Of a stretch of DNA of 64,000 nt, positions 16,877 to 33,895 are shown one piece after another. A program made the translations under genes and the position numbers. The notes below the pieces were generated by a model. The model searched no databases and was not told the DNA's origin. It was given only the letters and a program-made list of their open reading frames with translations. Each line of letters opens with the position of its first letter. Position 1 is the first letter of the stretch. The stretch lies in contig JBEPYN010000002.1 of the NCBI GenBank assembly GCA_041641305.1, forward strand, positions 64,001-128,000, in the 5' to 3' direction. The DNA comes from Nitrososphaerota archaeon. GTDB lineage: Archaea > Thermoproteota > Nitrososphaeria_A > Caldarchaeales > Caldarchaeaceae.

Positions 16877-17470
16877 AATAAATATTTATCCCTCACGGGA
16901 AAAGTTGCTCCAAGAATTCTTTAGAGGCTCTTCCGGAGTCGCCTACTCTGGCATCTCCCGTTAAAAAGGCACCCATCCACAGCCCGGGTCGCATAGTGGC
17001 GTGGCACAAGATTCGAGCCAGCCAACCAGCCCCACCACTTAACAGAAATAACCAACCACGGGGCGACACGTACTATTGCAGGTGGATTGTTTTGTCCCCT
17101 CACCCTCAATCCGTCAGTTTATTAGCCACAGCTACCGGTAAACCCCGTCCATCAAACAGCTTTGCGTAATTATGGTCAACCCCAATTTTCGCCAATAGGC
17201 TAACATGCTGACAAATTATTGTCACCTCACATCCGTGGAAAACCAAAATTTCCGGGAATTAGCCCCGGGTATTACCTGACCGAAATTAGTCAAAATCTGT
17301 AATACGCCCAGTTTCTGCGGCTTAGAGAGGCTGAATTTCGGCTTTTGGAGGCATTCACTAGAGAGTTCTTAGGAATACCTCGACGGTTGACGATTCCTGG
17401 CGGTCTTTGTGTGTTGGGTGTTATTCCGCCAGTTGTTAGCTTTAGACTCCGGCTTCTCCACCCGGGCTAA

Positions 17471-17656
17471 ATGGAAATGAGATGGGGAGAAGGCCCCAAC
17501 ATCTTGACAAATCTCATGAGGCGGCCCAGCAGGCCAGGGGATAGGAGAGTGATATACCACGTCGCTACAGAGCCAAGAGAATGGCGGGGAGGAAAAACAT
17601 ACATAGACATTGAAACAGGTTTGGGATTCGCTCTGCCAGAAGAGTACGTTCCTTGA
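17471..17656 (+). CDS. Small hypothetical protein
   Basis: 61-aa ORF with plausible composition upstream of the MTase. Confidence 0.4.
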   Translation: MEMRWGEGPNILTNLMRRPSRPGDRRVIYHVATEPREWRGGKTYIDIETGLGFALPEEYVP

Positions 17657-17771
17657 ACGCTTCATGAGCATAGATATTATGATTCGCCGAAAATGCTCTT
17701 GTATGTCCGGTATATGGCCTGCAAAGGTTTTAAGAAACGGCAGGGCTGATTGGTTTGAATAAGATTCGGGA

Positions 17772-20700
17772 ATGAGGTTGGATACTGCTTTCTGGGTGTC
17801 TAAGGCTAAGGAGCTTGGCTACCCTGTGCGGCAGGTGGAGCTCAGCATTGATTATCTCAGGGAGAGCGGAGTTTTCCCAAGGTCCCTTAATGTTGTCCAA
17901 TCTCTGCGTCTGTATCTCGATGATTACATAGAGTTTGTCATAATAAGCGTTGGTGATAAACTGTCTAGGGGGTTCTGCACTAGGGTGGCGCGAGGCTGGA
18001 AGGAAAAACGCCTCATCAGACCTCTCCTCATATTTACGGCTGGTGAAGATGAGAGCTTCATTGTTACCGTACCCGGCGCCGGCAGCGGGGGAGAGGCCAG
18101 GGTTCTGCATATTCAGGATGAACTCTACAGGACCGACATAGAGGTGATTGAGAGCCTCAGGTACACAGGTGACCCCGAGAGCCTTAGAAAAGCATATGAC
18201 AGTGAGATGCTGCCGTATGAAAAGGTTAGGAAAGAGTTCTTTGAAGGCTACAGAAACCTGTATGAGAGGATAGTTAATGCTGTGAAGGATGTTCTGCATG
18301 AAAATGCTGCTTCCTATGCTCAGCGTTTTCTCGGACGGCTGATGTTTCTCTATTTTCTGCAGAGGAAAGGCTGGCTTAAGGGGGATAGGAGTTTTATAAA
18401 CAAGATAAGGGATTACCTTGAGTTAAACCGTCTTTTCTACGAGAGCTTAAACAAGGGAGGCGGTGAGGAGGGTATTCCTTTCTTAAATGGGTCTTTGTTT
18501 GAGCGGGAGGAGTATCTTACGGAGAGGGTTGAGAAGAGGATAGCGGTTGAGATGAATTCGATATTCTATGATGCTAGAAATTTCTTCAACGGGTATAATT
18601 TCACAATCGACGAGGCTTCGCCGCTCGAGGTTGAGGTTAGTGTTGACCCGCTTTTGCTTGGAACCGTTTTAGAGAACATGCTGCCGGAGCATGAGCGTGG
18701 TAAGAAGGGCACCTTCTACACACATGTGAACGCGATAGGTTTCATGTGTAGGAGGGCGTTAGCGGCTTGGCTTGGGTTGGAGGAGACTGTGCAGCAGAGA
18801 GATGGTGAGCTGAGGTTTGTCGACGGTTTGGAGCTGTGTGTGGAGGAGTTGAAGAGGCGTAGGGATGAGAGGGAGATAAGAGAGTTTAGGGAGAGGCTGC
18901 TTTCTCTCAAAGTTCTCGACCCGGCGGTCGGCTCGGGCGGCTTCCTTGTTGTGATGATGCAGACGATTCTTCAGCTCATACAGGGGGTGGAGGAGGCGGT
19001 TGGCTGGAAGTCTGACATAGAGCAGTACAAACGCCGAATAATACCCAACCTCTACGGCTTCGACATAGAGCCGGAGGCGGTGGAGATTGCGCGGCTGAGA
19101 ATTTGGTTATCCCTGATCGTGGACCAGAAGAAGCCGGAGCCTCTTCCAAACCTAGACCTTAACATAGTTACTGTGCAGGATTCGTTGGAGCTTCCCAAAG
19201 GTGTTCAACGGGTTCTCGGCGAGTTCGCGGCTGAGATTGGGTATCTAAGCATAGTGGAGGACCTTGAAGCAGTTAAGGCTAGGTATCTTAACGAGCATGA
19301 CCCAGTAAAGAAGAACGCGCTGAGGAAGAGGATTGAGGAGCTTCAGAAAGAGTTTGTTAAACGCACCGGACTGACTGTTCGGGCGGGGCCTCCTGTCGAG
19401 TTCTTCATGCCAAGCCTAGCAGACATCATAGTGATGAACCCTCCATACGTTAGGCAGGAAGATATCTCCAAGCAGAAAAAAGAATATTATGTAAGCAGCT
19501 ACAGGCTGTACAAGACCTCTGACATCTATGCGTACTTCATGGTGAGAGCCCTGAGGCTTCTTAGGACTGGGGGTGCTGCTGCTTTGATTACATCTGATAA
19601 GTGGCTTGAGGTTAATTACGGCAGGGTGCTCCAACAGCTGCTGAAACCCCACATCGTCGCTATCTATGGCCAGAGAAGGAGGAGCTTCAAAGCCGACGTA
19701 AACACGGTGATAACAGTCCTTAAGAAGGATGAGCAACCAGCTGACAAGCCTATCCAGTTCATCTACTTAGAGTCTTACAGTGATGAGAAGGTTAGGAACT
19801 ACAATGCTATAGAGAGGGGAAGCTCCAGCCGGGGAAGTGGTATTATCTAAGAGTGCCTCGGATATTCGAGGACGTGCTGCTCCCAAGGCTGACGCATAAG
19901 CTCAGGGATTTCGCCGAAATAAAATTCGGAATTAAGACCGGTGCTAATGAGTTCTTCTATATGAAAGACATAAGCCACCTATACGAGGCAGACTACCTAG
20001 CTAACCCAAAGAAGTTCGAGGACTGGGGAGTAAAAGCGCGAAACCAAAAAGAGCTCGAAGAACAAGAACTGATATACATAGAAAACGAAGCAGGAGAAAG
20101 ATTCGTAATAGACAGAAAAGATGTGAAACCAGTCATAAGAAGCCCAAGAGAAATAAGGAGCTATATAATCACAGATGTGCAAACCCTATGCCTATACACA
20201 ACTAACCCCGGAAAATACACGAGAAAATACATAAGATGGGGAGAACAACAAGGTTACCATCAAAGACCAACCTGCAGGGCAAGAAATCCATGGTGGAAAC
20301 TACCAGAATTCAAACCAGCACATGTTCTACTACCAATGTCGTGGATGGATACAATCTACATACCTTATAGCGAAAAACCTGTGATATGTGATGCAAGACT
20401 TTATGCTTTGTACAGCAAAGATTCGTTAAACCTTTGGAAGTATCTCAATTCGACGTTGTTTTTATTGACTGTCGAGCTATTTTGTAGGAGACTTGGCGGA
20501 GGAGCAACAGATATAAAGGTGGAGGATTATGATGATATTCCTGTACCTAACCTTAGCAAATTAGAGATTGAGTTTTCAGCCGAAATCTTAGCTTCCAACA
20601 TTCCACTTCGATACACTGATGAAGTTAAACGTAAAGAAAGACGCGAACTCGATAAGGCCGTGCTCAGAGCCTTAGGCTTCCCCGAATCCGAGCTAGATAG

Positions 20701-20821
20701 GCTTGTCGATGAGCTTCACAAGGCTTTTGTATGGGTCGTTGAGGATCGCCTCATAAAGGCCGGCAGGCCTTTAACAAAAGATGAAGAGGAGGAGGTAATA
20801 GAGGTTGGCGAGGATAATTGA
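17772..20821 (+). CDS. Eco57I/type IIG-like N6-adenine DNA methyltransferase (DrmMI-like), frameshifted at ~19816
   Basis: RLMFLYFLQRKG, FLNGSLF, GTFYT, DPAVGSGGF, NPPY, FGIKTGANEFFY; ORFs 17772-19850 and 19853-20821 join if one G is added to the G4 at 19816-19819. Confidence 0.85.
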
Positions 20822-23800
20822 CAACGTTAGGAAGAGGTTGGCAGAAGTCCTCAACGAGGAGCTCAGGACCCTAGATGAGGTGGCCATAGCCTCGGCTTAC
20901 TTCAACGTAATGGGCTATGGCACCATAGCCGATGCGCTTGGCGACAAGCCGCTGAGACTACTCCTAGGCCGCGAGCCAACCGAGACCATCAAGTGGGAGG
21001 ACGAAATACTCAGAGAAATCGAGGAATACGAGGACGACGCCGAATACTTCAGACTCCTCCTCCGGTGCATAGAGTATTTCAGAGACGAGAAGCGCCAAGT
21101 AAGAACCATCGAGGGCAGGTTCTTCCACGGCAAGGCCTTCATAGCCGCCACCCCAAGCCTAAACGAGGTAAAACACGGCATCGGGATAGTCGGGAGCAGC
21201 AACTTCACCTACGGTGGCCTCGTCTCGAACAGGGAACTAAACATGCTCAACACGGACAGAGAAGTAGTCCAAGAGCTAAGCGAGTGGTTCAACGACCAGT
21301 GGCTCGCCTCGACAGACTTCAAGGACAAATTCCTCTCAATGCTGAGCAACTACGTAACCACCTGGAGCCCATACGAAGTAGTAGCCAAAGCCCTCTACGA
21401 GACCTATAAAGGACACATCATCGAGAGGGAAGAAAGACTACTCAAGAACCTATACCCGCACCAGCAGCTAACCTACATAGACGCGAAGGAGAAACTCGAT
21501 AAATATGGCGGCGTAGTGATAGCGGACTCTACGGGCCTAGGTAAATCGAGGGTAGCGTTAGCCCTAGCCCACGAGGCGATAAGAGAGGGAATACGCCCCC
21601 TCCTCATAGCGCCAAAATCGATACTGGAAACAACATGGAAGCGCGAAATGAACGAAACCCTCATAAGAATTGACACACTTTCCACAGAAATGCTTTCACA
21701 AAACCCCGACATAATAGATGACTATGCCGGAGAAAACGGCCCACATCTAATCATAGTCGACGAGGCCCACTACTTCAGAAGAAGCTCAACTAATAGATAC
21801 ATAGCGCTAAGAGAACTGGTGACAAGGAACCAGGCGGATATAGTGCTGATAACCGCGACCCCTGTCAACACGAGCCTCATGGACCTCTACTCCCTCCTAA
21901 GTTTATACCTACCAGACAACTGCCTAGCAGACCTAGGCCATGCATCGCTATATGCATACTTCGTGACCCAGCAGAAAAGCTGGCTAGCTGGAGAGCCAAT
22001 AAACATGGACGACATACTCCGCAGATTCATAGTGAGACACTCTAGAGAGCTAGCAAAAGCCCTGGATAGAGAAGGTAGGATAAAATTCCCCAAAAGAGCC
22101 TTCGACGAAAAGATAGTGAGATACTCCATAACCATAAGCCTTGATGAAATCTACAAAAAACTAGAAAATCTGAGTCTAGCATTCTACGACCTCTCGGTCG
22201 AGAGGCTATCGGCACAATTCAGGCTACCCGACGGGACAAGAATCGAAAAGAAAGAACCAACACAGATAGAGAACCTGAAAACACTAGTGAAAACCATATT
22301 CATAATAAACCTCTTTAAGAGACTCGAGAGCAGCTACGCGGCATTTGGAGAGACGTTGAGAAGGATGTTAAGCTATATAAGAGCAGCGAAGCATTACGCT
22401 AAGCAGCACTCAGTATTCATACCGCCCAAAATGAGAGGAGACATACTTAACCTGTTCCCGGATGTGGAAGAGATTGAGGATGAGATACCGTTGGAGGCGC
22501 TGCCGGCTCCCGAGCAGCTCTTCTCAAAACCAAAATACAAAGACCTATACGATGGATGCAGGTTAAGCAGAAAGGAAGCCGAGGAATTCGTAGCCAGTTG
22601 CTCCAAAGACGAAGAAGCCATAGAATCGCTTCTGCGCATGATACCCGACCACGATGAGAAATACTTCCTACTAGAGGAGAGGCTCCAACAGATTATGAAG
22701 CAAATAAAGGAGCCGAACGGTGTAATAGTCTTCACACAATACGCAGACACAGCGTATTATCTCTACAGGAGGCTTAAAGCCTCCTTCAGCCGGGTGATGC
22801 TAGTGACCGGGGCAGGCGGCTATGATGACAAGGGCGAAAAAGCCTTAGAGGACCAGATTGTAAAACGATTCCAGGACGTGGGCGGGTTACTCATAAGCAC
22901 AGACGTTCTAAGCGCTGGACAGAACCTACAAAACGCCCAATACGTAGCCAACTACGACTTCCCATGGAACCCGGTCGTACTAATCCAGCGGGTAGGCCGG
23001 ATAGATAGAATAGGCTCAAACTACGACACAGTTTATCTAATCAACGTCTTGCCCAAGAACGGAGACCCTGATGACCCAGAAAGCCTAGAACACTTTCTAG
23101 GGCTAATGCAGAGACTATACCAGCGCCTAGAGATGATAAGAGAAACAGTTGGATTGGATGCGTCGACTCTGGGTGAGGAGGCTGCGCCGAGAGACTTCTC
23201 GATACAGGTCATGATAGCGAGAAACGACGCAAGAGTGCTAGAGATACTTGAACAGAAGATAGAACAGTTCACTAAAGACCCAATAGACATTCTAGCAAGA
23301 ATACTCAACGAGAAGGGTTTACAGTGGGTCGAGAGAATCCCCAATGGCATAGGGGCGATAAAGAGGAGCTCCTTCAACGGAATTTTCGCGCTTTTAACCG
23401 ATGGGAGCGATTTTTATTGGCGCCTCCACATCCTAGACAAGGATAAAGAGAGGGTAATCATCTCCCCAACCGAAATAGTAGACCTTCTGCTAGAGGGCGA
23501 GAGCGATAACAGAGGGGAGAAGCTTGAGTATGATAAGCTAATACCTCTCTTGGTCATGGTTAAGGTATCACTCAAGAATGAGCTCGAAGAAATCATGAGG
23601 AGAGAAACCACGGCAATGGGACCCGTAAGAGTAGATAAAAGAATACGCATTATATTCGATGCGCTCAGCCAGTTCGGCGACGAAGGTGAGAGGCTAGCCG
23701 CCATGTTCCGCAGAGTAGCTTCAAGACCGGCGATAGTTAACCATCTCTACAGAGCATATCTGGAGGGGAAGCTTCTAGAAGAGGCGAGAGAAATACTGCC

Positions 23801-23885
23801 CAAAGCGGTGCAGGAGATAGAAACAGCCAACCCTGAGACAAAGGAGCTAAGACGCGTCTGCTGGTGCTACTTCACAAAAATCTGA
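20805..23885 (+). CDS. PLD-nuclease + SNF2-like helicase (DrmD-like)
   Basis: FHGKAF...GSSNFT; ADSTGLGKS, DEAH, TATP, GQNLQ, PWNP..QRVGRIDR. Confidence 0.9.
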   Translation: MARIIDNVRKRLAEVLNEELRTLDEVAIASAYFNVMGYGTIADALGDKPLRLLLGREPTETIKWEDEILREIEEYEDDAEYFRLLLRCIEYFRDEKRQVRTIEGRFFHGKAFIAATPSLNEVKHGIGIVGSSNFTYGGLVSNRELNMLNTDREVVQELSEWFNDQWLASTDFKDKFLSMLSNYVTTWSPYEVVAKALYETYKGHIIEREERLLKNLYPHQQLTYIDAKEKLDKYGGVVIADSTGLGKSRVALALAHEAIREGIRPLLIAPKSILETTWKREMNETLIRIDTLSTEMLSQNPDIIDDYAGENGPHLIIVDEAHYFRRSSTNRYIALRELVTRNQADIVLITATPVNTSLMDLYSLLSLYLPDNCLADLGHASLYAYFVTQQKSWLAGEPINMDDILRRFIVRHSRELAKALDREGRIKFPKRAFDEKIVRYSITISLDEIYKKLENLSLAFYDLSVERLSAQFRLPDGTRIEKKEPTQIENLKTLVKTIFIINLFKRLESSYAAFGETLRRMLSYIRAAKHYAKQHSVFIPPKMRGDILNLFPDVEEIEDEIPLEALPAPEQLFSKPKYKDLYDGCRLSRKEAEEFVASCSKDEEAIESLLRMIPDHDEKYFLLEERLQQIMKQIKEPNGVIVFTQYADTAYYLYRRLKASFSRVMLVTGAGGYDDKGEKALEDQIVKRFQDVGGLLISTDVLSAGQNLQNAQYVANYDFPWNPVVLIQRVGRIDRIGSNYDTVYLINVLPKNGDPDDPESLEHFLGLMQRLYQRLEMIRETVGLDASTLGEEAAPRDFSIQVMIARNDARVLEILEQKIEQFTKDPIDILARILNEKGLQWVERIPNGIGAIKRSSFNGIFALLTDGSDFYWRLHILDKDKERVIISPTEIVDLLLEGESDNRGEKLEYDKLIPLLVMVKVSLKNELEEIMRRETTAMGPVRVDKRIRIIFDALSQFGDEGERLAAMFRRVASRPAIVNHLYRAYLEGKLLEEAREILPKAVQEIETANPETKELRRVCWCYFTKI

Positions 23886-24602
23886 ACACACCTCCCAAAA
23901 CCCTCTCCAAATCCTCCTAGGCTTTTCCGAAGACGGCCAATCATTATGAACACCGGCCTTCGACGGCCAGATAGTGCAACACAGACTCCAACAGTTCCAG
24001 GATTCGCCCCAGGAGGAAAGTCCGTAGTCGGGTCATCAGCTAGAGCCAGACACCCTTCGCCGTGACGCATCTAAGAACAACTACGTTTTTCTCATCCACG
24101 GAAATGTTTTGACCAGAGGCAGGAGCCCGCTGAGGGGCCGAAACTACGTAGAACATCTCCTCACCAATTTCAGCCTCGTCTCCAACCCTGAACCTGTGAA
24201 GCCATTTCTTCAGAAGCTTAAGTGTCGGAGCATGCCTGACGTAGACAACAACCTCATCATACTTCCTAGAATCAGCCGAAAGCTCGTCAGGAGAAGAAAA
24301 GCTAACCTGTATACAGAAGCTTGGAAACAGGCTTGAGAACGCGGATGGCGGCAGAGACGGCTACACCTTGAGAACGCGTTTCTTGCCACTCACACCATTC
24401 AGGTCTCATCTGTTGCATAAAAGCGGTGTAGGCCAGAGCAGCTAAATCGCGCATAACCTTAGTGCAGAGGGTTCTTGAGAAAGCCGATGGAGTTGGATAG
24501 GGTGGAACCATCCAAACGTCCTTCGCCACCACTTTTTGCACAGAACTCAGATATGTAGTCGAAAACTAGGGGTCCGAGAACGGGTCGAATAGTTATGGCG
24601 GC

Positions 24603-25332
24603 TTAGATGAAGGCTTTAGTTGAATTATTCCATATCAGGTCAAAGATGGAGTCAAGATTTCCGACTCCATCTTTCCTAAAAAGTAATCCGACCTCGAAGT
24701 TACTCATTAGGGAGTGTCGTCTGAACTCCCACGACCCAATGTAGGCTAGGTCACTGTCCGCTATGACCATCTTTGCGTGGAGGCCTGCAATGAGAAGACC
24801 CCCGACGCTTTGAGCAAAAACCCTGCATTGGAACTCTCTTCCAAACCTGTTCTCTTGTACGCCTCCCATATCTCGCTAAGCACTGGTTTCAGCGAATGAA
24901 ACCTCTCAGACCGCGTCAAGAAGCGCACCTCTACGCTGCTTGCAGCTAGCCCTCTAAAATGCGGGACCAGCATGGATAGGGTCGGCTGGTCATCTAAATG
25001 CGAGCATATGCGCAGTACATGCCTAGCCTGCTTCACTATTGCGAGGAAGGCGCTGAGCATATCGAAGCATCTTTGGCTTGGGACCTGCCCTAGACCTAAT
25101 CCTGGAATGTTTGCCACAATCTCTACCTCTGGCTGCTCAGCAACTCTGCGAAGCTCCTCGGGCGCGTGCTTTGGAGGTTTTAGGATGAGCTTCCCCCGGA
25201 AAGCTCAGCATCAAGGTATCCCATCTTCACTAGCGCAATAGCGCGAAGCTGAGTGATTCCCCTCTCTTCTTCGGACACGCAGCTGAGCAGGTCTTCAAGC
25301 TGTAGAGAACCTCTAGAAACAACTAGGTTCAC
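24603..25332 (-). pseudogene. drmC: Phospholipase D-family nuclease (DrmC-like), multiply frameshifted
   Basis: LHAKMVIADSDLAYIGS...NFEVG HKD motif; pieces in several frames starting at the drmB stop. Confidence 0.75.
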
Positions 25333-26747
25333 TATGTCTTTATCCCCAATTGCCTGAGCACCAACTTCCTGTCAAGCTTATCGTTCGGCACGAAGTACCC
25401 GCTAGTGGGGTGGCATAGTGGGTCTTTCACGTATAAGCAGCCCACGCAAGCGTTTCTACAGTCATATTTGCACGACATGAGCATCCGCTGGGCCTCTACA
25501 AAGACCTCGGTTAGCTTGTGGTCGAACGCATATGATAAACTCCCCTTATCATCTTCGGAGCATTCGTAGATGAGAATAACATTAAGGTCGTCCAAGACCT
25601 TGCCTATGAACGACCCGGACTCCACCCCGGCGAGAAGGTGAAACGATTTGGTTAAAGCGTGCTCAAGTGTATGAAGGAACGTAAACTTATCTTCGTCGTT
25701 GACAAGAAAACCGCGCACCCTAAGCAGCACGGCTTCCCCCTCAGCAATGGCCACGTATGCCTTGTAGTGTTTCCTAAAGTTCACGTCCCGCTCCTCCCAG
25801 GGTTGTATAACAGCGTCTTTCTTGGCGTAGTATCCATAGCAGACTATGGCGGCTTTGACATTCCCGAGCAAGTAAATGTTGTCCGGGTCTATGCCCAATA
25901 CGCGTATAGACTCGGCATCTTGACTCTTGAGGACGTCGGTACCTCGCCGGATAGCCTTCCGCCTCCCGTCCAAAATGTCTCTAGCCACATCTTCAACATT
26001 TAGGCCTTCTATGCTAACAGCGCTTACGATAGCTGGCTTAAGCGGGTTTACGGCGACAGTTTTGATGGACATCTGTTGCATTTTTTGGTTGTCTGCAACA
26101 CCTGTTCGCCCTCCTGTCTGGCACCCGCAACCCATATGAGGCCTCTCTTGCTCCCCGCATTTTTTGCAGAACCACCTTGACTCGGATATCTTCGCCCGCC
26201 TAACCTCAAGCCCTATCCTCCCAACCCCGCACTTTTTACAAGTGAAGGTCCCATCTGGGTTACTCTTGGCAAACTTGAACGGGGGTCTCAAAGCCTGTAT
26301 CTTGCTACACGATAAGCAAACGTGGACGATGCCAAGCTGGTCGAACTTATCTCCACCACATTCCCTGCACTTTGCGAGAGGCAAGGAACGTCTATCCAGC
26401 AAGTGATAGGCCCTGCAATTCTTATTGAGACACACGAGGCTAAGAGGCCAGAGCTCCAGCAGGCCACTTTCAGGCTGGTAAAGGCGGACCCTTTCCGACA
26501 CCACGCGGCTGGCGTAAGGAATACCTAGCTTTTTTGAGATGCTTGCTAGCGCCTCTTCCTCCGCCTCCGATGGTTGGCGATACTTCAATAAGGCTTGGCT
26601 GATGGCCTTTGCTACCACCGCCCTCAAGTTATCATCATCCACTTGGTTGCCGTATAATTCTGAAACCTTCCAGCAGTAGCCCGAGTACTGTAGAGGGGCT
26701 CCGGGGAACCGACTCTGAATGGCTTGGATTGGGGTCACCTGCACCAC
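25332..26747 (-). CDS. drmB: DUF1998/MZB-domain protein (DrmB-like)
   Basis: Q..SRFPG, several CxxC ribbons, HTLEHAL, ILIYE, CKYDCRNACVGCL...CHP...NDKLDR. Confidence 0.8.
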   Translation of the reverse strand: MVQVTPIQAIQSRFPGAPLQYSGYCWKVSELYGNQVDDDNLRAVVAKAISQALLKYRQPSEAEEEALASISKKLGIPYASRVVSERVRLYQPESGLLELWPLSLVCLNKNCRAYHLLDRRSLPLAKCRECGGDKFDQLGIVHVCLSCSKIQALRPPFKFAKSNPDGTFTCKKCGVGRIGLEVRRAKISESRWFCKKCGEQERPHMGCGCQTGGRTGVADNQKMQQMSIKTVAVNPLKPAIVSAVSIEGLNVEDVARDILDGRRKAIRRGTDVLKSQDAESIRVLGIDPDNIYLLGNVKAAIVCYGYYAKKDAVIQPWEERDVNFRKHYKAYVAIAEGEAVLLRVRGFLVNDEDKFTFLHTLEHALTKSFHLLAGVESGSFIGKVLDDLNVILIYECSEDDKGSLSYAFDHKLTEVFVEAQRMLMSCKYDCRNACVGCLYVKDPLCHPTSGYFVPNDKLDRKLVLRQLGIKT

Positions 26748-26761
26748 TATCTGTTTATGAC

Positions 26762-29566
26762 TCAGCCACCATCACCCCCAATATCCTCATCTTCGCCTAA
26801 CTCAGCGCCCAACCTTAGCATGCGCAGCAACTCCAATCCCGATGTTGGTTGGAGTCGCACCAACCTCCCGCCACCGCGTAGAGATGGCCACCCCTCGCTA
26901 AAAAACACGTCGAAGCCGCCGCTTTGAGCTCGCGCAACCCTATCTCCAACGTCATATAAGAAGTCGCTGATTATCACTCTAATCGATTTCTCTAGTCCGG
27001 CATCCATGCGACACTCTTCTGTCAAGTAGATGCCGCGCAATTCGTCGGTTAGCTCTCCGAGCTTTGCCATGAGGGTTTGATGCAAGGCTCGCCTTGCTTG
27101 TCTCCAGCCTCCTGCTTGGTAACCATAAGTGAGGTACCGCGACCTTGCCAACGCGTTGAAAACGAGCGGCAACGTCGCCTCTATTGCTGCAGTATTGCAA
27201 GGTTCGACCACTTCGGGCTCAAAGGCTGGGTCGGTGAACCAAGTCACGAAGTTTTCGTAGATCCAGCTATCCCTGGGCATCTCGGGAACGAGGTGTAGAA
27301 CCACCAGCGCGGGGGCTTCCTGAGCTATGGCTAGGCGCCCTACTCTGCCTATTACTTGGAAGAATTCGTTGCTGCTTGTGGGGGCCCCCCATATATGTGC
27401 TACGTTAAGCCACGGCAGGTGAACCCCCCACCCGAGAGTCTTGGTGGCGATGAGCAGCCCTAACACGATTTGCTGAGCCAGCCTCTTCATCTCAGCTAGT
27501 GCATCTGGACTCAAGTCGCCGTGGAAAAATAGTAATTCATTCTCCGGCAGGTTGATGTCTATGCCCGGCTCCGATGCGAGCTTAGGGACATACTCTAGGA
27601 GGTTATGCCCGTCGGTTTTACGTTGCACGTAGAGCAGTTGCTTACCATACATGGACTTATACTCACCTCCTTGTTTTTTCACATAGCTGTACAGCGCTAA
27701 GGAGCTCCAGCTAACGCTTCCTAGTGTCGAGACATCCCATGGATATATGGCAACCACCCTCTGCCAGAGGTTGGGGGACTGGGAGAAGTAGCGCCTTCCA
27801 TCCAGAACCTCCACTGCTTCCCTACCTGCCCCAATTAGCTTGCATGCGAACTCCTCAGGATTAGCCGCAGTCGCGCAAGCCAGGTAAAACAGCGTCCCGC
27901 CCTCAAGGCCGTAAAAGCTCCTTAAGGACTTCAATAGCCTAATGAAGTGGGATAGCCTGTTAGCCGGCGCGCCAGAAAATAATGTGAACTCATCTATGAA
28001 CACTAGGCGTATGTCTGACTTTAGCTGTGTTGCGTGGGTTATCGGTTGTTTGCAATTTGGGCACGAGACGGCGCCTCCTGAGGCAGGGGATACGCGACCG
28101 CAACTGCTACACCTCAGGAACCTAGCCCCTATTAGGGCATGGGAGTTCTCATTGCGGGGGAGCTCATAAATTAGCTTGTCAGGGGTTGCAACGATTATGT
28201 CAGGGCAGAAATTCTCGGTGTCCCTGCTATCCAAGAACACATAGTCTAGGACAGCGCCACACTTCTTGCACTTGGGTACGCGAACCCCGGATAGCTCGAC
28301 CGCGTCGAAGGATTCGTTCTCGCCGCAATTTGGGCACTCCGTTATGAGTTGTTGGGGATAGTAGTTGGCAACTTGGTCTTCCGATTTTTCAATATATCCC
28401 TTTCCTATGTAAAGGCCCAGCCTAATCTTGCCCCCTTCCCTGAGCTGGTTAAGGTCGAATAGATACTTAGAAATCGCAGTAACTTGCTGAATGGTCAATA
28501 TGCGGGTTGGGAAGAGGAGTAAGACCTTTACCCCATCGCCAGGCGCTAAGGCCGCGGTTGCTACGGCCATAGCGGCGGCCGTTAGCGTCTTGCCTGCTGC
28601 TGTCGGAACAGCGCTGACAAGCACCTTTGTCGCCCGATTGTCTTCAAACAAGAATTGCACCAGCCTGCGCAGGGAGTCCAGCTGGTGCTTATGCAGGGCT
28701 TTGATATTCTCCCTCCTCTTTATAATCTCGGTGACTTTCTTGAGCTCCTCATACCTGCTATACAGCTCCTCCTCCTCGCTTGTGTCTGCAGGGTGGGGGG
28801 AGAAAGAGTATCTATCAAGCACTATGACCGGCGCAGCGAATACTACGTTTTTTTCTCTGCGGCTAACCCGCGTGAAGCAGTTTAGGTTGTAAAGCTTTGA
28901 CCTTGCATGTGGTGGGTTATCTTGCGTGACGACCTCGTCTATCTCGCCATCGATTATAGCTTGTACGAGCGGCGAATAGAGGGCGTGGCAGGACCTGTAT
29001 TCCACCTCCCGTCTTGCTTTATATATGCTGCTCACATCTGTGGTGTTCATGAGTTTAGCGGTGACTATGTAACCATCATCTTCGGCGATTTCAATCCTGA
29101 CGTGAAGGGCCGCTTTAAGTCGCACCTTTTCGTTAGCCGGTAACTCTGCTTGGTATTCTTTGCTGATTGGCAAATCCTTTACGCTCAATGTGGCCTCTAT
29201 GGCCCCCATCCGCAAAGACGATATTGTGGGGGCCTTCAAGTTCTCGAAAGTGGGGTAAAGGAACAAAGCCTTTACAGTCACTGCTCTAAGCCTACCCCTA
29301 ACTTTGAATTGGGATTGAACAAACCACGGCTTTGCGGATGGTCTCAAGGAGTCGTCGGAAATCAGCTGCTGAGAGACTTCCTTGGGGTAAAGCCTGCCTG
29401 TCAGGGCGGCGTCCCTCTGTGGGTTGAGCTGGTTGAATAGGGCGGAGGTAACGGACTCCAATGATAGCTTGCCAATCGGTTTGTCGAACATAGGGTCCTC
29501 CAAAGACATTTCAAGTATTTCCCGAGCCAAATCAGCAACATATTCAGAGCCAGGTATGCGGGACAT
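26762..29566 (-). CDS. drmA: SF2 helicase (DrmA-like)
   Basis: PTAAGKT, PTRILTIQQ, TPDK, DEF, CAT, ATKTLGWGV, QVIGRVGR, PRD..YE; upstream of DUF1998 and PLD genes; start moved to ATG 29566. Confidence 0.8.
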   Translation of the reverse strand: MSRIPGSEYVADLAREILEMSLEDPMFDKPIGKLSLESVTSALFNQLNPQRDAALTGRLYPKEVSQQLISDDSLRPSAKPWFVQSQFKVRGRLRAVTVKALFLYPTFENLKAPTISSLRMGAIEATLSVKDLPISKEYQAELPANEKVRLKAALHVRIEIAEDDGYIVTAKLMNTTDVSSIYKARREVEYRSCHALYSPLVQAIIDGEIDEVVTQDNPPHARSKLYNLNCFTRVSRREKNVVFAAPVIVLDRYSFSPHPADTSEEEELYSRYEELKKVTEIIKRRENIKALHKHQLDSLRRLVQFLFEDNRATKVLVSAVPTAAGKTLTAAAMAVATAALAPGDGVKVLLLFPTRILTIQQVTAISKYLFDLNQLREGGKIRLGLYIGKGYIEKSEDQVANYYPQQLITECPNCGENESFDAVELSGVRVPKCKKCGAVLDYVFLDSRDTENFCPDIIVATPDKLIYELPRNENSHALIGARFLRCSSCGRVSPASGGAVSCPNCKQPITHATQLKSDIRLVFIDEFTLFSGAPANRLSHFIRLLKSLRSFYGLEGGTLFYLACATAANPEEFACKLIGAGREAVEVLDGRRYFSQSPNLWQRVVAIYPWDVSTLGSVSWSSLALYSYVKKQGGEYKSMYGKQLLYVQRKTDGHNLLEYVPKLASEPGIDINLPENELLFFHGDLSPDALAEMKRLAQQIVLGLLIATKTLGWGVHLPWLNVAHIWGAPTSSNEFFQVIGRVGRLAIAQEAPALVVLHLVPEMPRDSWIYENFVTWFTDPAFEPEVVEPCNTAAIEATLPLVFNALARSRYLTYGYQAGGWRQARRALHQTLMAKLGELTDELRGIYLTEECRMDAGLEKSIRVIISDFLYDVGDRVARAQSGGFDVFFSEGWPSLRGGGRLVRLQPTSGLELLRMLRLGAELGEDEDIGGDGG

Positions 29567-29602
29567 TTCTGAACTGAGGTAGCTCTTCGACGAAGATAAG
29601 CG

Positions 29603-29618
29603 TTCCGACGAGTCGGAA
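29603..29618. promoter_or_regulatory. Palindrome TTCCGAC-GA-GTCGGAA in divergent drmA/wHTH promoter
   Basis: 7-2-7 perfect inverted repeat. Confidence 0.5.
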
Positions 29619-29661
29619 GGCTGTTTTCCAACGCTCCGAAGCCTTAGCAAAGCGCTTATAT

Positions 29662-30516
29662 GTGCAATGTATATCTCTATTAGCAACCCAGGGGCCGCTC
29701 TTGGTAGATGCAAACCCATGCATCCTATTGCTGGATGAGCGCGTGGTCTACGACTATAGGGTATCAAGTTTGATTAGTTTCTTGCAGGATAGTACTGCCT
29801 TCGGCCGTGAAGTCTTTTGCCTTTATCTCAATAGCAGGCCCGTCGACTTGCTAGGTAGCCAGCCACCATCCCTAGGCGGCAGAATCAAGGTTTTGAAAAG
29901 AATGATTGTTAATCCTGTTGAACCGGCGGAGAATCGAAGCTCGCTTAAGGAGGCCTTGCTCAGCTTTTTTGCGGCGGTAGGGATTAGGAGCGGGGTTAGA
30001 CTCGGCGTCTGGATATGCGCTATGTCGCCAAACCTTTACCAGTACCCATTGGAGGCCTTCTATTGGGCCCTCTACCTCGTCGGTTATGAGATAGCGTTTG
30101 TTAGGAGGCTGCTATTATCGGAGGATGAAGCATATGAGGTCCCCCACACGCTAAGCTTCTCCGCACGCTTCGCAAATGAAAAGGTGCGGGAGCTTCTGCT
30201 GATGGCTCTAGCTTATCTAAGCGTTTTCAGTAGTGGTAGAATCCACTCAATAGCTAAAAAGATAGAAGAAGTAATTCCGGGCAGGTACGGTGACTCTGAT
30301 ACGATACGCAAGGCTTTGAAGCCGACTCTTGAGGACGCCTATATGTACTCTCTGGTAGAAAAGCTCAAGCCCCGCATCAAATCTATTGAGTTCAGTTTAA
30401 CGCGATTCGGGAGGATAGTTACAGACGCAATTCTGGACAGGGACATACTCGACCACTTACCCAACGATGACGTACGTGGCTTCGTGAACCTGATTGCTGA
30501 GGAGGCTCGCGGATGA
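29662..30516 (+). CDS. Hypothetical protein: Rossmann-like N-terminus + C-terminal wHTH (possibly Csa3/CARF-like)
   Basis: C-terminal GRIHSIAKKI...TIRKALKPTL...SLVEK...FSLTRFGRIV; start probably ~29701. Confidence 0.5.
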   Translation: MQCISLLATQGPLLVDANPCILLLDERVVYDYRVSSLISFLQDSTAFGREVFCLYLNSRPVDLLGSQPPSLGGRIKVLKRMIVNPVEPAENRSSLKEALLSFFAAVGIRSGVRLGVWICAMSPNLYQYPLEAFYWALYLVGYEIAFVRRLLLSEDEAYEVPHTLSFSARFANEKVRELLLMALAYLSVFSSGRIHSIAKKIEEVIPGRYGDSDTIRKALKPTLEDAYMYSLVEKLKPRIKSIEFSLTRFGRIVTDAILDRDILDHLPNDDVRGFVNLIAEEARG

Positions 30517-31844
30517 GAGGGTTGGTAAAAATTTGCATCGAAAACTGCATACCAAGGGAGAGGGGGTGGTTTGTTGAGGTTAGGTGGGGGGAGATAGCCT
30601 ACCTCGGCCCGAAGAGTGATGAGGAATACATGGTAGCTGTTGAGGCATGCGGTGAAGTTGGTGGGACAGAAACGCGCGACTCGTTTGTCCTCGACGACCC
30701 GGTGATGAGAAATTCTTTCATAACCCTGCTCAGGACAAAGAAAATCAAGGTTCACTCCTTGGAAGATCATGCCATCTCTCTAGAGCGATACATTGAGGCG
30801 GCATACGAGTCGATAAAGCAGCAGCTCCCGCGGCTGCATTCCGAGTACCCGCGGGGGCCGCTCGAGGTGCTTGACACGCAGACAAGGAGGTGGAAAATAC
30901 TTGAGGACGCCTGCGATGCGCGGTATAAACCGTTCTCAGTTCTCCGTGGAGGAGGCGCTTTTTATGTCTCCTATGGCGGCGCTTTTAAGAAGGTTGGCAA
31001 GCGCGAGGCGTACATAGTAGCGCTTAGGGAATACACCATGAAAAGCGTGAGGCTAGCCCTATCAGATGGGGGGTACTTTGGGGTGAACCTGTCTGAGCTG
31101 GGGCAATTGCCAGATGAGGTGTTCAACGCCCTCGTTAGGTTCCAGCAAAAACTTATCAAGGGCGCCGCCATCCTGCTATACCGCACCCCCGCCCTATCGG
31201 CGGTATGCAGGGTGCTCGCCATAGCCAGGGTGACCCCTATCCTCACAGAGGGGGTCGTCAGGTTGCGCCGTATGCATGGGTACAAGGAGGTTCCGATAAT
31301 GGGCACCAAGCTTTGGGCAAACCTAAGCATCATATCCAGGATATTTGAGGGCTTGGGGTATGGGGTTGAGTCGGGGGATAGATGCATTACGGTTGAGCGG
31401 GATGGCTACAGGCTGGCCATCTATGTTTCCAACGAGAAGCGGTTTATCGCCGGCGAGCTGGAGGACGGCTCCAAAGCCGTCTTTTTACCTGCTCCGTACC
31501 TGGAAAGCTTCTTAGGCCTATTGGAAGCGTTGAAGAATATGCGCACGTGGGGCTTCGCTCTGATAACTGGTGATGCGTGGCCCCGCGTTATGCAGTTATT
31601 ATGCATTCTATGCAACAGCGTTGGGCCGGGAGATGAAAAAGCTGTCGCTGAGGCATTAGTGCTTGCAAGGAAGGATGAGGGCGTTATGGACGCTATCAGG
31701 AGCAACATCAACATTAAAACCACAGCGTTGAATGCTTTAGAGTCGGCATTGGTTGGAAAAAGCAATACCGTCCTAGATAAGCTATCACAGGAAGAGCTGC
31801 GCAAGCTTTGGAGGCTGGTCAGAGCGGGCCCTAGCCCCCAATAA
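30513..31844 (+). CDS. Hypothetical protein (443 aa)
   Basis: Long ORF overlapping the upstream stop (ATGA); no motif recognised. Confidence 0.75.
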   Translation: MRGLVKICIENCIPRERGWFVEVRWGEIAYLGPKSDEEYMVAVEACGEVGGTETRDSFVLDDPVMRNSFITLLRTKKIKVHSLEDHAISLERYIEAAYESIKQQLPRLHSEYPRGPLEVLDTQTRRWKILEDACDARYKPFSVLRGGGAFYVSYGGAFKKVGKREAYIVALREYTMKSVRLALSDGGYFGVNLSELGQLPDEVFNALVRFQQKLIKGAAILLYRTPALSAVCRVLAIARVTPILTEGVVRLRRMHGYKEVPIMGTKLWANLSIISRIFEGLGYGVESGDRCITVERDGYRLAIYVSNEKRFIAGELEDGSKAVFLPAPYLESFLGLLEALKNMRTWGFALITGDAWPRVMQLLCILCNSVGPGDEKAVAEALVLARKDEGVMDAIRSNINIKTTALNALESALVGKSNTVLDKLSQEELRKLWRLVRAGPSPQ

Positions 31845-32496
31845 TGTTGAAATATTTGCAGATTTTCCTGGCAGGGCACTTTGAGCATTCGGGGTGATGG
31901 TGCTTACATACCAAGGAGCCGAAATCTAGAAGGGCGTAGTTGAGCGCGCGAGGGTTCATGCCCCTAGTCCTTAGCGCCTCCTTTAATCCAGCCAGCTCGT
32001 TACGGCCCAGCTTTTCACGGCCTAGCAAGACGCGCGCGAGGACCCTCGACACGTTTGTGTCCACCGCTATAAGCCTCTTGCTGTAAACGTGCACCAGCAC
32101 TGCTGTCGATATGTAGTCGCCCACTCCGGGCAGATGGGCTAGCGTGCTTTCGCCCACTTCCCCCCTGCACAGCGCGCTGGCTATGCGCAGCAGCTCCGCA
32201 GCCCTAAACCTGTAGAAGCCTAGAGGTTTTAGGACAGCCTCCAGCTCCTCTGGACCCGCTTTCTCAAGCAAGCACGGGTTAGGCCACCTTCTCATTATTT
32301 CGGTGTATGCGCCCGCCGCCTGCTCCGCCCTCGTCTGCTGGAGGAGCTTCTCTGCCACTATTATCTCATACAGCCCTGAAGCCTCGCGCCAAGGGAAGCT
32401 TCGGCCGTTCTTCTGATACCACGTCATCACTGCGTTCGATAGTCTGATGAACCTGCGGCGAAGCTCTGTTACGGCTGCCTTTTTCAACTTGTTCAT
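31831..32496 (-). CDS. HhH-GPD DNA glycosylase with 4Fe-4S motif (MIG/MutY-like, candidate T:G mismatch glycosylase)
   Basis: WY..NGRSFPWR, AEKLLQQT, LPGVGDY, VDTNVSRV, CKHHHPECSKCPARKIC; no MutY C-terminal domain. Confidence 0.85.
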   Translation of the reverse strand: MNKLKKAAVTELRRRFIRLSNAVMTWYQKNGRSFPWREASGLYEIIVAEKLLQQTRAEQAAGAYTEIMRRWPNPCLLEKAGPEELEAVLKPLGFYRFRAAELLRIASALCRGEVGESTLAHLPGVGDYISTAVLVHVYSKRLIAVDTNVSRVLARVLLGREKLGRNELAGLKEALRTRGMNPRALNYALLDFGSLVCKHHHPECSKCPARKICKYFNIIGG

Positions 32497-32500
32497 AAAC

Positions 32501-33547
32501 CTACAACGCTGGCTGGTTATAGTTGCCTGTTATCTCCCACTTTACGGATCCAGCGCCGCCGGCGAGTCTCGGCCTCCACCTAGCTCTGAGAAACATAAAC
32601 CCTCCAGCACTGCTCTCACTAATCTTAGCAGCTTTCAATGACTTTGCAACGGCCAAAGCAACAGGCGGCGGGACGGCGTTTCCGACGAGTCTATATTTAG
32701 CCTTTATTCCCCCTAAGAAGCTCCACCATTGCGGGAAGCCTTGTAACGCTGCGCACTCAAACCAACTGAAGCGCCTGTAGTGCGATAGGGGCGCTGTCGG
32801 GGCCCATCTTCCACCCCTTTTCTCCAGCGGGGGCGAGTCCGGGTGGAGCGGAACGTGTCTGCAGCTGGCTGGGATAACCCAGCTGACATCGTCCCAACAG
32901 CGCCTCCTGTTTCGACTCCAGTACACGGGGCTAAAGGACTCAAAGCAGACATCGTCACCCTCTGGTGGAGGCATGCCCTTCAGCGCCTGGCCAATAGTGA
33001 CGTAGCTCCTCCCAGCCAGAGGTCCGTGGGTAGGCGTAGGGACCTCGTATTTTACGTCTAGAGATTTTTTGAAGCCGATGAAGAATATTCGTGTCCTGCT
33101 CTGCGCTACACCGAAATCCTTTGAGTTAAGGGCGAAGTAGGCAACGTTGTAGCCGGCGGACTCGGCTAGCCTTAGAAACCTTCTGAGGTATACCCCCCGA
33201 TACATCGTAGCAAGCCCTCTAACATTTTCCATCACAAACCCGTAGGCATCGCATTCCTTCACGACTTTTATGAAGCGGCGGAACAGCGTGAATGGTTTGC
33301 GGTGCTCTATGCTGCCCCTGTAGTTGCTCACGCCCTGGCACGGCGGGCCTCCTATAACGAGGTCGGCTTCTTGAAACTCTTCCTGCATGACGTCTACGCA
33401 TTTCGCCTCAATCCCCATGCTCTCCGAGTAAGTTAGGCATGCCCACCTATCGGAGTCGGCCGCCCGCAGTATCGAGAAGCCGGCCCTGGCAAATCCGTAG
33501 TCGAGTCCACCAGCCCCGCAGAAAAGGGATACAACACTACTAATCAC
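32501..33547 (-). CDS. DNA cytosine-5 methyltransferase (DrmMII-like position)
   Basis: FCGAGG, GGPPCQ, ENV, QSRTR, GNAVPP; TRD SRNRR..W...HVPLHP. Confidence 0.95.
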   Translation of the reverse strand: MISSVVSLFCGAGGLDYGFARAGFSILRAADSDRWACLTYSESMGIEAKCVDVMQEEFQEADLVIGGPPCQGVSNYRGSIEHRKPFTLFRRFIKVVKECDAYGFVMENVRGLATMYRGVYLRRFLRLAESAGYNVAYFALNSKDFGVAQSRTRIFFIGFKKSLDVKYEVPTPTHGPLAGRSYVTIGQALKGMPPPEGDDVCFESFSPVYWSRNRRRCWDDVSWVIPASCRHVPLHPDSPPLEKRGGRWAPTAPLSHYRRFSWFECAALQGFPQWWSFLGGIKAKYRLVGNAVPPPVALAVAKSLKAAKISESSAGGFMFLRARWRPRLAGGAGSVKWEITGNYNQPAL

Positions 33548-33631
33548 AACCTTTTTCTTGTAATCTCAGGTATAAAAGAATATCATGAACGACGCGTTGT
33601 CTGTCGTGTCTGCGCTTATTCCCTTATATGC

Positions 33632-33895
33632 ATGGCGCCTTCTGAGGAAGGAGATGTGTTTCTGAGGCGTGTTCGTCTGACAAGCGATGTCCACAGGCTG
33701 GTGGGAAGATACGAGGCGTGCTCCGCCAACTGGCAGGTCTACGTCTTGGTGAAGGAGGACTCTGTTTTGGAGCATCCGGAGCACAGGGCGCTCACTATTC
33801 CGCCCGGCGACTACATATTGTCACGTGTAAGTGAGTTGGATAGGGAGCGGTTTATCAACAACTCGGAGAGGTACACGCGGGCTGTTTCTGATTGA
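33632..33895 (+). CDS. Small HxEH protein (usual partner of DUF6745-type proteins)
   Basis: EGDVFL...LEHPEHRALTIPPGDY..RVSE...RAVSD. Confidence 0.6.
   Translation: MAPSEEGDVFLRRVRLTSDVHRLVGRYEACSANWQVYVLVKEDSVLEHPEHRALTIPPGDYILSRVSELDRERFINNSERYTRAVSD

Follow-up and report, generated by a model that had tools for sequence, protein, structure and literature searches.

Nine genes within a 64,000-nucleotide stretch of DNA from a Nitrososphaerota archaeon (hereafter the window) raise the question of whether they form a single DISARM system or several units that happen to be neighbors. An earlier note on this sequence had listed all nine, and its gene list stands in order and orientation: an Eco57I-type N6 methylase and a PLD-SNF2 gene on the + strand, drmA, drmB, and drmC on the - strand, two divergent genes of unknown function, an HhH-GPD glycosylase, and a C5 methylase. 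Its headline was a hybrid of class I and class II DISARM, with both methylase arms serving one core. We find instead that the real unit comprises seven of the genes and is not such a hybrid (Table 1). It is an undescribed DISARM-like variant, the core of which is already covered by PADLOC models and in which two genes without known family (X and Y) occupy the place of DISARM's usual accessory gene.

Table 1. Features of the locus (window positions; the prefix C2 marks a position elsewhere in this genome)
Feature	Position	Strand	Remarks
Eco57I/IIG-like N6-adenine methyltransferase, outside cassette	17772..20821	+	one gene, 1014 aa
PLD-SNF2 helicase-nuclease fusion, partner of N6 methylase, outside cassette	20805..23885	+	1026 aa
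Small gene of unknown function, left edge of exchangeable site	24040..24438	-	three copies in this genome
Whole cassette: 5mC methylase, T:G-mismatch-type glycosylase (probable), Y, X, then divergent drmA, drmB, drmC	24,603-33,547		
drmC (PLD family) pseudogene, cassette gene 7	24603..25350	-	three frames
DrmB-like zinc-binding (DUF1998-type) partner, cassette gene 6	25332..26747	-	471 aa
DrmA-like YprA-family SF2 helicase, cassette gene 5	26762..29566	-	934 aa; two zinc ribbons in RecA1
Divergent intergenic region, candidate operator for X	29567..29700	.	two AT-rich boxes and an imperfect inverted repeat (7-locus alignment)
Gene X, cassette gene 4	29701..30516 (ORF open from 29,662)	+	about 271 aa
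Gene Y, no known family, cassette gene 3	30513..31844	+	443 aa
HhH-GPD [4Fe-4S] glycosylase, probable T:G-mismatch (Mig) type, cassette gene 2	31831..32496	-	221 aa
C5-cytosine methyltransferase (drmMII role), cassette gene 1	32501..33547	-	348 aa
Two-gene unit (87 and 294 aa), right edge of site	33632..34776	+	second copy at C2:424,016-422,803

The neighboring N6-methylase/PLD-SNF2 pair

In the hybrid reading, the N6 methylase and the PLD-SNF2 gene would be drmMI and drmD serving the adjacent core. The methylase (PF07669, E 2e-28) does match DrmMI at E 1e-15, and the SNF2 protein matches DrmD at E 7e-33, but for both genes non-DISARM models outscore the DISARM ones. For PLD-SNF2, the best PADLOC match is C3a139 HKD+Snf2 (E 2e-46), ahead of DrmD, and in NCBIfam it reaches 125 bits against the DrmD cut-off of 610; NF042964 scores 125 bits against a cut-off of 1100. 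A Freyarchaeia DISARM with drmD, drmE, and drmMII has been reported (PMC11529989), and the PLD motif of the pair is preserved where drmC has been lost, which makes nuclease borrowing possible. Against this, the pair and the core are convergent and not co-operonic, and a second copy of the pair lies elsewhere in this genome. Nor would two methylase types in one system be new, since they have already been described together in class 1 (bioRxiv 2021.12.28.474362).

The earlier note had held that its reading would fail if the pair never accompanied this core elsewhere. We found the pair beside 0/15 metagenome drmA loci and 0/4 other genomes (15-18 kb flank); of these 19 drmA-family loci, only 7 extended >3 kb in the relevant direction. 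Seven of 59 relatives (8/60 genomes) carry the PLD-SNF2 gene, none of these seven having a full-length drmA; among the four drmA genomes, three show no PLD-SNF2 match and the fourth has a 35% match ~645 kb away. Eleven matches of only about 75-120 aa were discounted, being generic helicase motifs. Since a closed congeneric genome (G009) has the pair intact but no drmA family, and since none of the 19 other loci, seven of them with >3 kb of flank there, has it alongside, the pair is an independent module, and we regard the hybrid as extremely unlikely. Run X2 has pieces of both modules on contigs of their own that differ in depth, which was disregarded as no measure of copy number.

The methylase is printed in two frames, broken within the run of G at 19,816-19,819, a point that had been overlooked. 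The break is an assembly error, for the copy in a second assembly is intact (P0196). Explaining all three frameshifts of the locus as homopolymer errors was rejected: this holds for the methylase alone, those in drmC being real.

Conservation and probable exchange of the seven genes

Across Thermoproteota, the seven genes keep their order even where DrmA identity falls to about 30%. The same genes, order, and strands recur in L013, L015, L016/L017, L019, and G873 (DrmA identity 89, 45, 47, 46, and 30%, respectively), and in L024 the strand of the glycosylase is the sole difference. X and drmC are absent from G246, and G961 lacks the 5mC methylase and the repair gene and has a Y of 294 aa. Y adjoins drmA in 9/9 metagenome loci with enough flank and in 5/5 genomes; drmC is present in 11/11 metagenome loci reaching it and in four of the five genomes; the C5 methylase is found in 8/8 metagenome loci extending that far and is adjacent in three of the five genomes. 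Sequence identities of Y, X, methylase, and glycosylase follow that of DrmA, with Spearman coefficients of 0.92, 0.84, 0.94, and 0.94 over 28 non-independent pairs.

Over 9.8 kb that take in the cassette and the left-edge gene, window and L013 agree at 89%, and in G009 about 2.7 kb of other DNA lies between the same flanks. Further copies of the left-edge gene (76%) sit at C2:425,718 and C1:521,554, and the gene is common to G009 and L013, both of which also hold remnants of the right-edge unit. No tRNA genes were found in the window. Other loci have restriction genes, integrase, or proviral genes as neighbors. Presence of the drmA family is patchy, with 3/400, 1/351, and 3/401 genomes positive in profile searches; peptide-pattern scans of genome contigs gave no drmA relative, the exact patterns being too strict. 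For the complete copy most distant from the window, proteins identical to its DrmA, Y, and X are recorded at NCBI under the name of the cultured species Nitrososphaera viennensis. We consider it probable that the seven genes are a horizontally exchanged DISARM-like defense cassette of Thermoproteota, at a variable defense site beside an unrelated N6-methylase/PLD-SNF2 restriction-type pair; defense as its function is what we infer.

Core and accessory proteins

DrmA matches PADLOC PDLC02573 (E 1e-73), and its family profile retrieves YprA 6znp (E 5e-13) and DrmA 7s9v_A (E 4e-6); a PDB profile search gave no sequence match for the N-terminal 300 residues, the part compared for the EVE-like domain and trigger loop of class 1 DrmA. 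Its start is probably ATG 29,566 rather than 29,767, another point that had been missed. The motifs described as divergent (PTAAGKT, DEFT, and ACAT) are all present, but they are clade features rather than decay, since DEFT and ACAT are invariant in 12/12 family members and Walker A reads PT[AF]GKT. DrmB matches PDLC02581 (E 1e-40), with invariant H358/H359 and C-terminal cysteines in 11/11 rows. The Pfam DUF1998/MZB model misses the window protein but matches a homologue (E 1e-5), and the family profile retrieves Serratia DrmB 7s9v_B (E 6e-4). Curated NCBIfam cut-offs are missed by DrmA of the window (DrmAS, 47/950 bits) and by DrmB and DrmC of L013 (17/240 and 38/133). Grouping with families such as Dpd, Druantia, or Hrq1 had been put forward as an outcome against DISARM. 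Dpd, Druantia, and ARMADA are defined by a helicase fused to an OB-CON-DUF1998 module (PMC12458937); here, helicase and DUF1998-type partner are separate genes throughout, in 13/13 metagenome loci reaching drmB and 5/5 genomes.

The window drmC is a true pseudogene, overlooked earlier. Compared with the intact L013 gene, it has single-base deletions near 25,195 and 24,835, an ATT start codon, and the changes GSGE to GSWE and SPFAD to SHLDD, and these lesions are real because the second assembly has identical letters. The gene is intact (249-250 aa) in 4/4 close relatives. The PLD consensus has Asn where DrmC reads GS[GA]E, a motif found in 9/9 sequences. The five lesions, together with an X that lacks the ATG present in L013, could mean that the cassette is dead and decaying in this strain, only methylase and glycosylase still mattering. 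We deem this very unlikely: the remaining six genes are open, and in each of them synonymous codon differences from L013 exceed nonsynonymous ones (120 to 100 in DrmA, 74 to 62 in DrmB, and 45 to 32 in Y).

The C5 methylase (PF00145, E 2e-56; DrmMII model, E 2e-55) has M.HaeIII as closest solved relative (E 9e-49), with the target-recognition region inside the alignment; genome-wide word counts were uninformative on its target (observed/expected 0.89 for GGCC, 0.50 for CCWGG, and 0.27 for GATC). As judged from sequence, the glycosylase is probably a Mig-type T:G-mismatch enzyme. Its best PDB match is Mig 1kea (E 3e-22), with MutY close behind (9e-22), and it lacks the MutY C-terminal domain. 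Ala57 and Tyr187 stand at the positions of Mig A50/L187 and MutY V45/Q182; its LLQQT motif is MutY-like, Mig having LLRRT, and the G873 homologue has LLRRT and Leu. In the G113 locus, Vsr takes the place of the glycosylase.

Y is probably a rare, non-catalytic, zinc-binding multidomain protein. Among 1.84 billion representatives it accounts for 21 clusters; plasmids yielded no Y. It has no match in Pfam, PADLOC, or NCBIfam, and a PDB sequence search with its profile gave only E >= 0.15. The structure model (pLDDT 87.8) predicts a C2H2 zinc site, two small alpha/beta domains, a degenerate nuclease-like domain, and a helical tail. At E <= 1e-3, Foldseek found nothing resembling either X or Y, and fold likenesses of Y reach only Z 5-6, a level the tool rates common. 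Residues 265-352 compare with the PD-(D/E)xK nuclease fold at Z 4.5-5.4, the catalytic residues being reduced across 19 rows to one partly acidic column and no conserved Lys. "Tandem HARP" is a guess for the alpha/beta domains, because Pfam HARP is absent from all 19 Y sequences searched and the two domains share no profile similarity. Orphan Y genes exist: four of the seven genomes having Y show no drmA-family match, and the orphans sit among housekeeping genes. One of them adjoins a helicase fragment, upstream of a probable DNA polymerase gene (names given by reading the sequences). A Cas8-like assignment of Y (Atlas clusters 0.93-0.94; recognition 1972, below 2300) was dropped, as fold searches gave no support.

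Could the cassette be a mobile DNA-repair or element-maintenance module rather than an antiviral one, pairing a YprA/MrfA-like helicase with a glycosylase and a damage-binding Y? The helicase profile's best solved relative is the repair helicase YprA, the third domain of Y is similar to a region of a TFIIH subunit, with a weak likeness to MutS-beta as well, and there are the orphans just described. Yet split helicase and DUF1998 genes followed by a PLD gene are the DISARM arrangement (PMC12458937), the repair gene follows the methylase and not the helicase, and presence is rare, patchy, and at defense sites. We consider this module improbable and retain the defense cassette.

X is a probable regulator. 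Its model (pLDDT 84.1) shows an alpha/beta domain plus a PadR-type winged helix (Z 10.6 for the latter). The whole chain weakly resembles CARF-wHTH proteins (Csa3, E 3.5e-3); many top Foldseek rows are CARF proteins, none reaching E 1e-3 (TM 0.30-0.36), while VIA lists are occupied by the winged helix, and Atlas offered no usable match. Distant X genes link weakly to near ones (hhalign probability 31%, E 5e-4). In the divergent intergenic region, GGAA-N6-12-WTCC occurs in 7/11 cases versus 1-3.5% of shuffles, a motif picked after seeing the data; a sigma-70 promoter scan, with a model unsuited to archaea, stayed at chance level.

X and Y together make about 715 aa, and an ordinary class 2 DISARM, in which they would be a split, unrecognizably diverged DrmE or mere passengers, has to be weighed. 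Core, 5mC methylase, and position agree with it, drmE is only occasional in class 2 (bioRxiv 2021.12.28.474362), and the PADLOC DrmA/B/C models already span the clade. However, as the earlier note had said, no drmE is recognizable: DrmE models miss X, Y, and 11 homologues in PADLOC, and those tested in NCBIfam. Moreover, in every locus seen to have both, X and Y form two genes, transcribed away from drmA, and their co-divergence with DrmA speaks against passengers. Ordinary class 2 is therefore unlikely; what is supported is the earlier note's own alternative, in which a class II-like variant lacks drmE and has an independent methylase-helicase system as its neighbor.

Proposed mechanism and relation to known systems

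The C5 methylase, assigned by its fold, would mark the host's own DNA, possibly at sites resembling GGCC. T:G mismatches arising from 5mC deamination would be repaired by the Mig-type glycosylase, whose place Vsr takes in one locus, as its residues and the gene exchange suggest. By analogy with Serratia DrmAB, DrmAB may load on DNA that is unmethylated and has a single-stranded end, blocking or unwinding it. Y, which is co-inherited, may serve as a non-catalytic DNA-structure-binding partner in DrmE's class 2 place, to which we give a little under an even chance; X, given the modeled winged helix, may repress or tune the two divergent promoters, for which the balance tips slightly in favor. 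DrmC, with its nuclease fold, would have an accessory role; the gene is dead in this strain, and the system may still work without it since DrmC is dispensable in both tested classes (PMC9142583 and bioRxiv 2021.12.28.474362). A bolder version, which we hold doubtful, would be a third, archaeal DISARM class: DrmAB would be aimed by Y as a zinc-binding junction/mismatch sensor (XPB-damage-recognition/HARP-like domains, dead nuclease fold) and switched on via X as a CARF-like nucleotide-sensing winged-helix repressor, with no active PLD nuclease needed, and Y would have been domesticated as a stand-alone DNA-maintenance gene in one ammonia-oxidizer lineage.

For target choice and the roles of accessory genes in DISARM, the variant offers a compact, conserved test case: two small unannotated families replace DrmE or DrmD, and a repair enzyme is added for the cost of 5mC. 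Since identical DrmA, Y, and X proteins are recorded under the name of cultured N. viennensis, methylome analysis and protein biochemistry are feasible. PADLOC would probably not call these loci class 2 because its type II definition requires drmE (PMC9252829).

Like class 2 DISARM of Bacillus paralicheniformis (drmE, drmA, drmB, drmC, and drmMII), the cassette has the drmA-drmB-drmC core order, a separate DUF1998-type gene, and a C5 methylase, and lacks drmD and drmMI. Unlike it, the cassette has no DrmE match, has conserved X, Y, and T:G repair genes, and is laid out in two parts, divergent/convergent; its methylase is nearest M.HaeIII and not shown to be CCWGG-specific, its DrmC reads GS[GA]E, and its core lies far below NCBIfam cut-offs. 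A 5mC methylase directly followed by a T:G repair enzyme is known from MthTI with Mig.MthI and Dcm with Vsr; here the two are attached to a helicase system, and the cassette has no cognate type II endonuclease. Druantia type II (DruM, DruF, DruG, and DruE) likewise combines a 5mC methylase with two accessory genes and a DUF1998 helicase, and the cassette methylase matches DruM2 models at E 1e-66, but helicase and DUF1998 are fused in DruE, and DruF and DruG models miss X and Y.

Class 1 DISARM with drmMII, from Serratia sp. SCBI, shares the core, its DrmA and DrmB (7s9v) being those retrieved by our family profiles, and illustrates that one locus can hold two methylase types. In that system, drmD and drmMI are integral and lie ahead of the core (bioRxiv 2021.12.28.474362), whereas the SNF2 gene here has an N-terminal PLD domain, faces the core, and is inherited separately, without the co-inheritance of drmD and drmMI that marks class 1. 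The neighboring pair resembles PADLOC C3a139 and Type-2 BR systems, in which an N-terminal HKD nuclease on a SNF2 helicase accompanies an N6 methylase (PMC12839542), but consists of two genes only. Among the rows listed in the supplement of a YprA survey, there are "DISARM-like helicase" entries for Nitrososphaerota and Bathyarchaeia, and the available part of its text gives no account of the gene neighborhood or of X, Y, and the repair enzyme (PMC12458937). That survey's "Uncharacterized DISARM-like classes" and PDLC02573/02581/02600 probably correspond to this clade, two DrmAs of which score 1021-2467 bits with PADLOC models (2467 for G873).

A co-inherited seven-gene cassette

Gene calls on the window recovered all nine genes named by the earlier note, in the order it gave. 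Seven of them form a cassette (24,603-33,547) of a C5 methylase, a glycosylase, the genes Y and X, and the divergent drmA, drmB and drmC; an N6 methylase and a PLD-SNF2 helicase lie as a pair to its left. The host genome is 1.66 Mb and 99% complete, and its description as a thermophilic archaeon fits the nearest named relative of the N6 methylase (85%), a Ca. Caldarchaeum subterraneum protein. PADLOC matched DrmA (E = 1e-73), DrmB (E = 1e-40), DrmMII (E = 2e-55) and, from the last drmC fragment, DrmC (E = 8e-11), while X and Y had zero matches in PADLOC, Pfam and NCBIfam model searches.

We collected 15 metagenome drmA loci, or about 10 at 90% DrmA identity. In all nine loci whose upstream DNA is long enough, Y adjoins drmA; the other six stop inside drmA or within ~500 bases of its start. 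X was recovered by tblastn in seven of these nine, and the remaining two carry an ORF at its position (the one in L024 aligned to X at 20%). Among loci reaching each gene, the methylase and glycosylase are present in 8/8, drmB in 13/13 and drmC in 11/11. Profile searches found the cassette family in 3/400, 1/351 and 3/401 genomes, five distinct ones with the window's own included. Among the other four archaeal genomes, the cassette is complete in G873, arranged and oriented as in the window, at 30% DrmA identity; G113 carries drmABC together with X, Y and the methylase, with Vsr in place of the glycosylase; in G961 drmABC and X are accompanied by a short Y, and no 5mC methylase was found beside them; and in G246, where X and drmC are absent, Y overlaps drmA and drmB comes next. 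For each of Y, X, the methylase and the glycosylase, identities between pairs of loci track those of DrmA (Spearman 0.84-0.94 over eight loci, with non-independent pairs). These findings show that the seven cassette genes are co-inherited.

Three neighborhoods drew our attention. In G246, the place of drmC after drmB is taken by a phosphoribosyltransferase-like gene (PsyrT/ShosT models, E = 1e-13) together with an unknown gene. The G113 cassette borders a provirus-like run with portal-, capsid- and terminase-like ORFs, identified by eye, which suggests carriage on a virus. The nearest relative has, 1.3 kb outside its cassette, a DUF262-type gene that is split (HEC-05 models, E = 9e-21 and 2e-13).

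Coordinates of features in the window, in its genome (G000; other contigs C1 and C2) and in related loci
Feature	Position	Remark
X	29,701-30,516	divergent gene, no family match
Y	30,513-31,844	divergent gene, no family match
Flank genes of variable sites	window 24,040-24,438 and 33,632-35,075; C2:418,400-426,100; C1:521,200-530,300	
Transposase-like remnant	window 16,175-16,700	relative at C1:442,516
DUF72 genes	window 35,169-37,294	two, divergent
Glycosyl hydrolase family 99-like gene	window 37,539-39,098	split in two ORFs
Low-GC stretch	window 39,433-43,452	GC 42-47%
Phosphoribosyltransferase-like and unknown genes	L033:13,392-14,936	G246
Provirus-like run with cassette	L031:1-14,100	G113
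DUF262-type gene	L013:3,001-4,611	nearest relative
Stand-alone Y homologues	L056:8,859-10,193; L057:9,223-10,617; L058:9,702-11,045; L059:4,081-5,415	55-58% to P0020

The methylase-helicase pair is independent of the cassette

The earlier note had proposed a hybrid of class I and class II DISARM, which is not borne out, the pair being a unit separate from the drmA core. The PLD-SNF2 gene occurs in 8/60 genomes searched (own genome counted) and full-length drmA in 1/60 of the same genomes. In the closed genome G009 the pair is intact (~85% identity) and is accompanied by the same left-edge gene; ~2.7 kb of other DNA separates this gene from the right-edge gene, and that genome has no match to Y or to PDLC02573, the DrmA model. 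The pair occurs twice in the window's genome, the other copy being on contig C1. The pair is beside none of the 15 metagenome drmA loci, of which only L013, L020 and L021 (the latter two near-duplicates) extend 3.8-7.8 kb beyond drmC. It is also absent within 15-18 kb of drmA in all four other drmA genomes; genome-wide, three of these have no PLD-SNF2 match and one has a 35% homologue ~645 kb away. Together, these observations show that the pair is independent of the cassette.

In the window, the N6 methylase is split over two reading frames and drmC over three. A contig from run X1 spans 16,274-35,000 with 0 substitutions and one gap; as the run may be the source sample, this counts as another assembly and not another sample. 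Because an intact 1014-aa protein from a contig of equal length matches both methylase pieces, the gap corresponds to the methylase split, which is an assembly error within a G run. Both assemblies therefore share the drmC lesions, namely two single-base deletions, ATT as start codon, and GSGE to GSWE and SPFAD to SHLDD changes. DrmC is intact (249-250 aa) in four close relatives. Of the two broken genes, drmC alone is really broken, and it has been lost in the window's genome.

The small flank genes of the cassette recur in the genome, bounding three variable sites, each with different restriction-type cargo (the cassette, the second pair, and a further probable methylase accompanied by an SNF2 remnant); these look like a family of exchangeable defense sites without an obvious integrase. 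Left of the N6 methylase is a decayed transposase-like remnant (zinc ribbon and LDEMF motif by eye) with no Pfam match. To the right, the DUF72 genes are also paired in G009, ~9 kb past the same site, and the split hydrolase gene possibly reflects a further frameshift or assembly error. The low-GC stretch has unannotated ORFs, some of which look restriction-endonuclease-like by eye, and extends the defense island rightward.

Properties of the cassette proteins

In the X model (pLDDT 84), an N-terminal alpha/beta domain is followed by a winged helix of PadR type (Z 10.6, rmsd 2.6, 90 residues). In whole-chain Foldseek searches many of the best rows were CARF proteins, e.g., Csa3 (E = 3.5e-3, TM 0.30), none significant, and the link between distant and near X genes was weak (probability 31%, E = 5e-4). 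In 7/11 loci the short X-drmA intergenic region contains two AT-rich boxes plus an imperfect inverted repeat, a motif picked after viewing the alignment and missing from L015 and three distant genomes tested. On the simplest reading, X would be a regulator of two divergent promoters.

Searching 1.84 billion representatives with a Y profile yielded 21 clusters. Thirteen were aligned with six locus proteins (19 rows); the alignment omitted four that nearly duplicate locus rows and four that were short or weak hits. C8 (13 rows), C12 (14), H81 (17) and H86 (17) suggest a putative zinc site, and W127 and P200 are the same in every row. Domain resemblances of the Y model (pLDDT 88, pTM 0.69), all modest, are to ACT/ferredoxin-like folds (Z 6.2), TFIIH chain residues 164-293 (Z 5.5, rmsd 2.7, 65 residues), which we take to be the XPB damage-recognition region, and VRR-NUC, Bax1 and Hjc nucleases (Z 4.5-5.4), with no conserved catalytic residues of the nuclease-like domain in the 19 rows. 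Y was found in 7/400 genomes sampled; four of these, members of a single family, lack any drmA-family match, which counts against a dedicated role. In those four it sits among housekeeping genes, possibly as a domesticated defense accessory gene.

The closest solved relative of the C5 methylase is M.HaeIII, recognition region included, and GGCC is our guess for its target. Words strongly avoided genome-wide relative to Markov expectation are GATC (0.27), GTAC (0.46), CTAG (0.49) and CCWGG (0.50). The glycosylase best matches Mig (1kea), with MutY almost level, and lacks the MutY C-terminal domain; its Ala57 and Tyr187 correspond to A50/L187 in Mig and V45/Q182 in MutY (PMC2714593). The strongest sign that it does T:G repair is the swap with Vsr. 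DrmA motifs DEFT, ACAT and QVIGRVGR are invariant (12/12). DrmC has HAK-x4-D-x6-GS[GA]E in 9/9 aligned homologues; since Glu replaces the Asn of the PLD consensus, nuclease activity of this family is uncertain.

Comparison with DISARM

Archaeal DISARM is known from Freyarchaeia and proviruses (PMC11529989, PMC11705971), and a YprA survey describes a DISARM-like clade with many uncharacterized classes (PMC12458937). The PADLOC DrmA model, which scores 2467 bits on G873 DrmA, appears to be built on the cassette's own clade. The literature searched (subscription papers mostly outside its scope) yielded no description of the seven-gene arrangement, X or Y. Both methylase types are reported within one Serratia DISARM locus (bioRxiv 2021.12.28.474362). 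DrmAB reportedly binds DNA that is unmethylated and carries a 5' overhang, DrmC not being required (PMC9142583), and by extension the cassette's DrmAB would do likewise, acting without DrmC. Class 2 is reported to require drmA, drmB and drmE (bioRxiv 2021.12.28.474362); Y may be a functional stand-in for DrmE. The cassette is not a hybrid; we consider it to be probably a DISARM-like variant that is class 2-like in its working and differs from DISARM class 2 in falling short on drmE.
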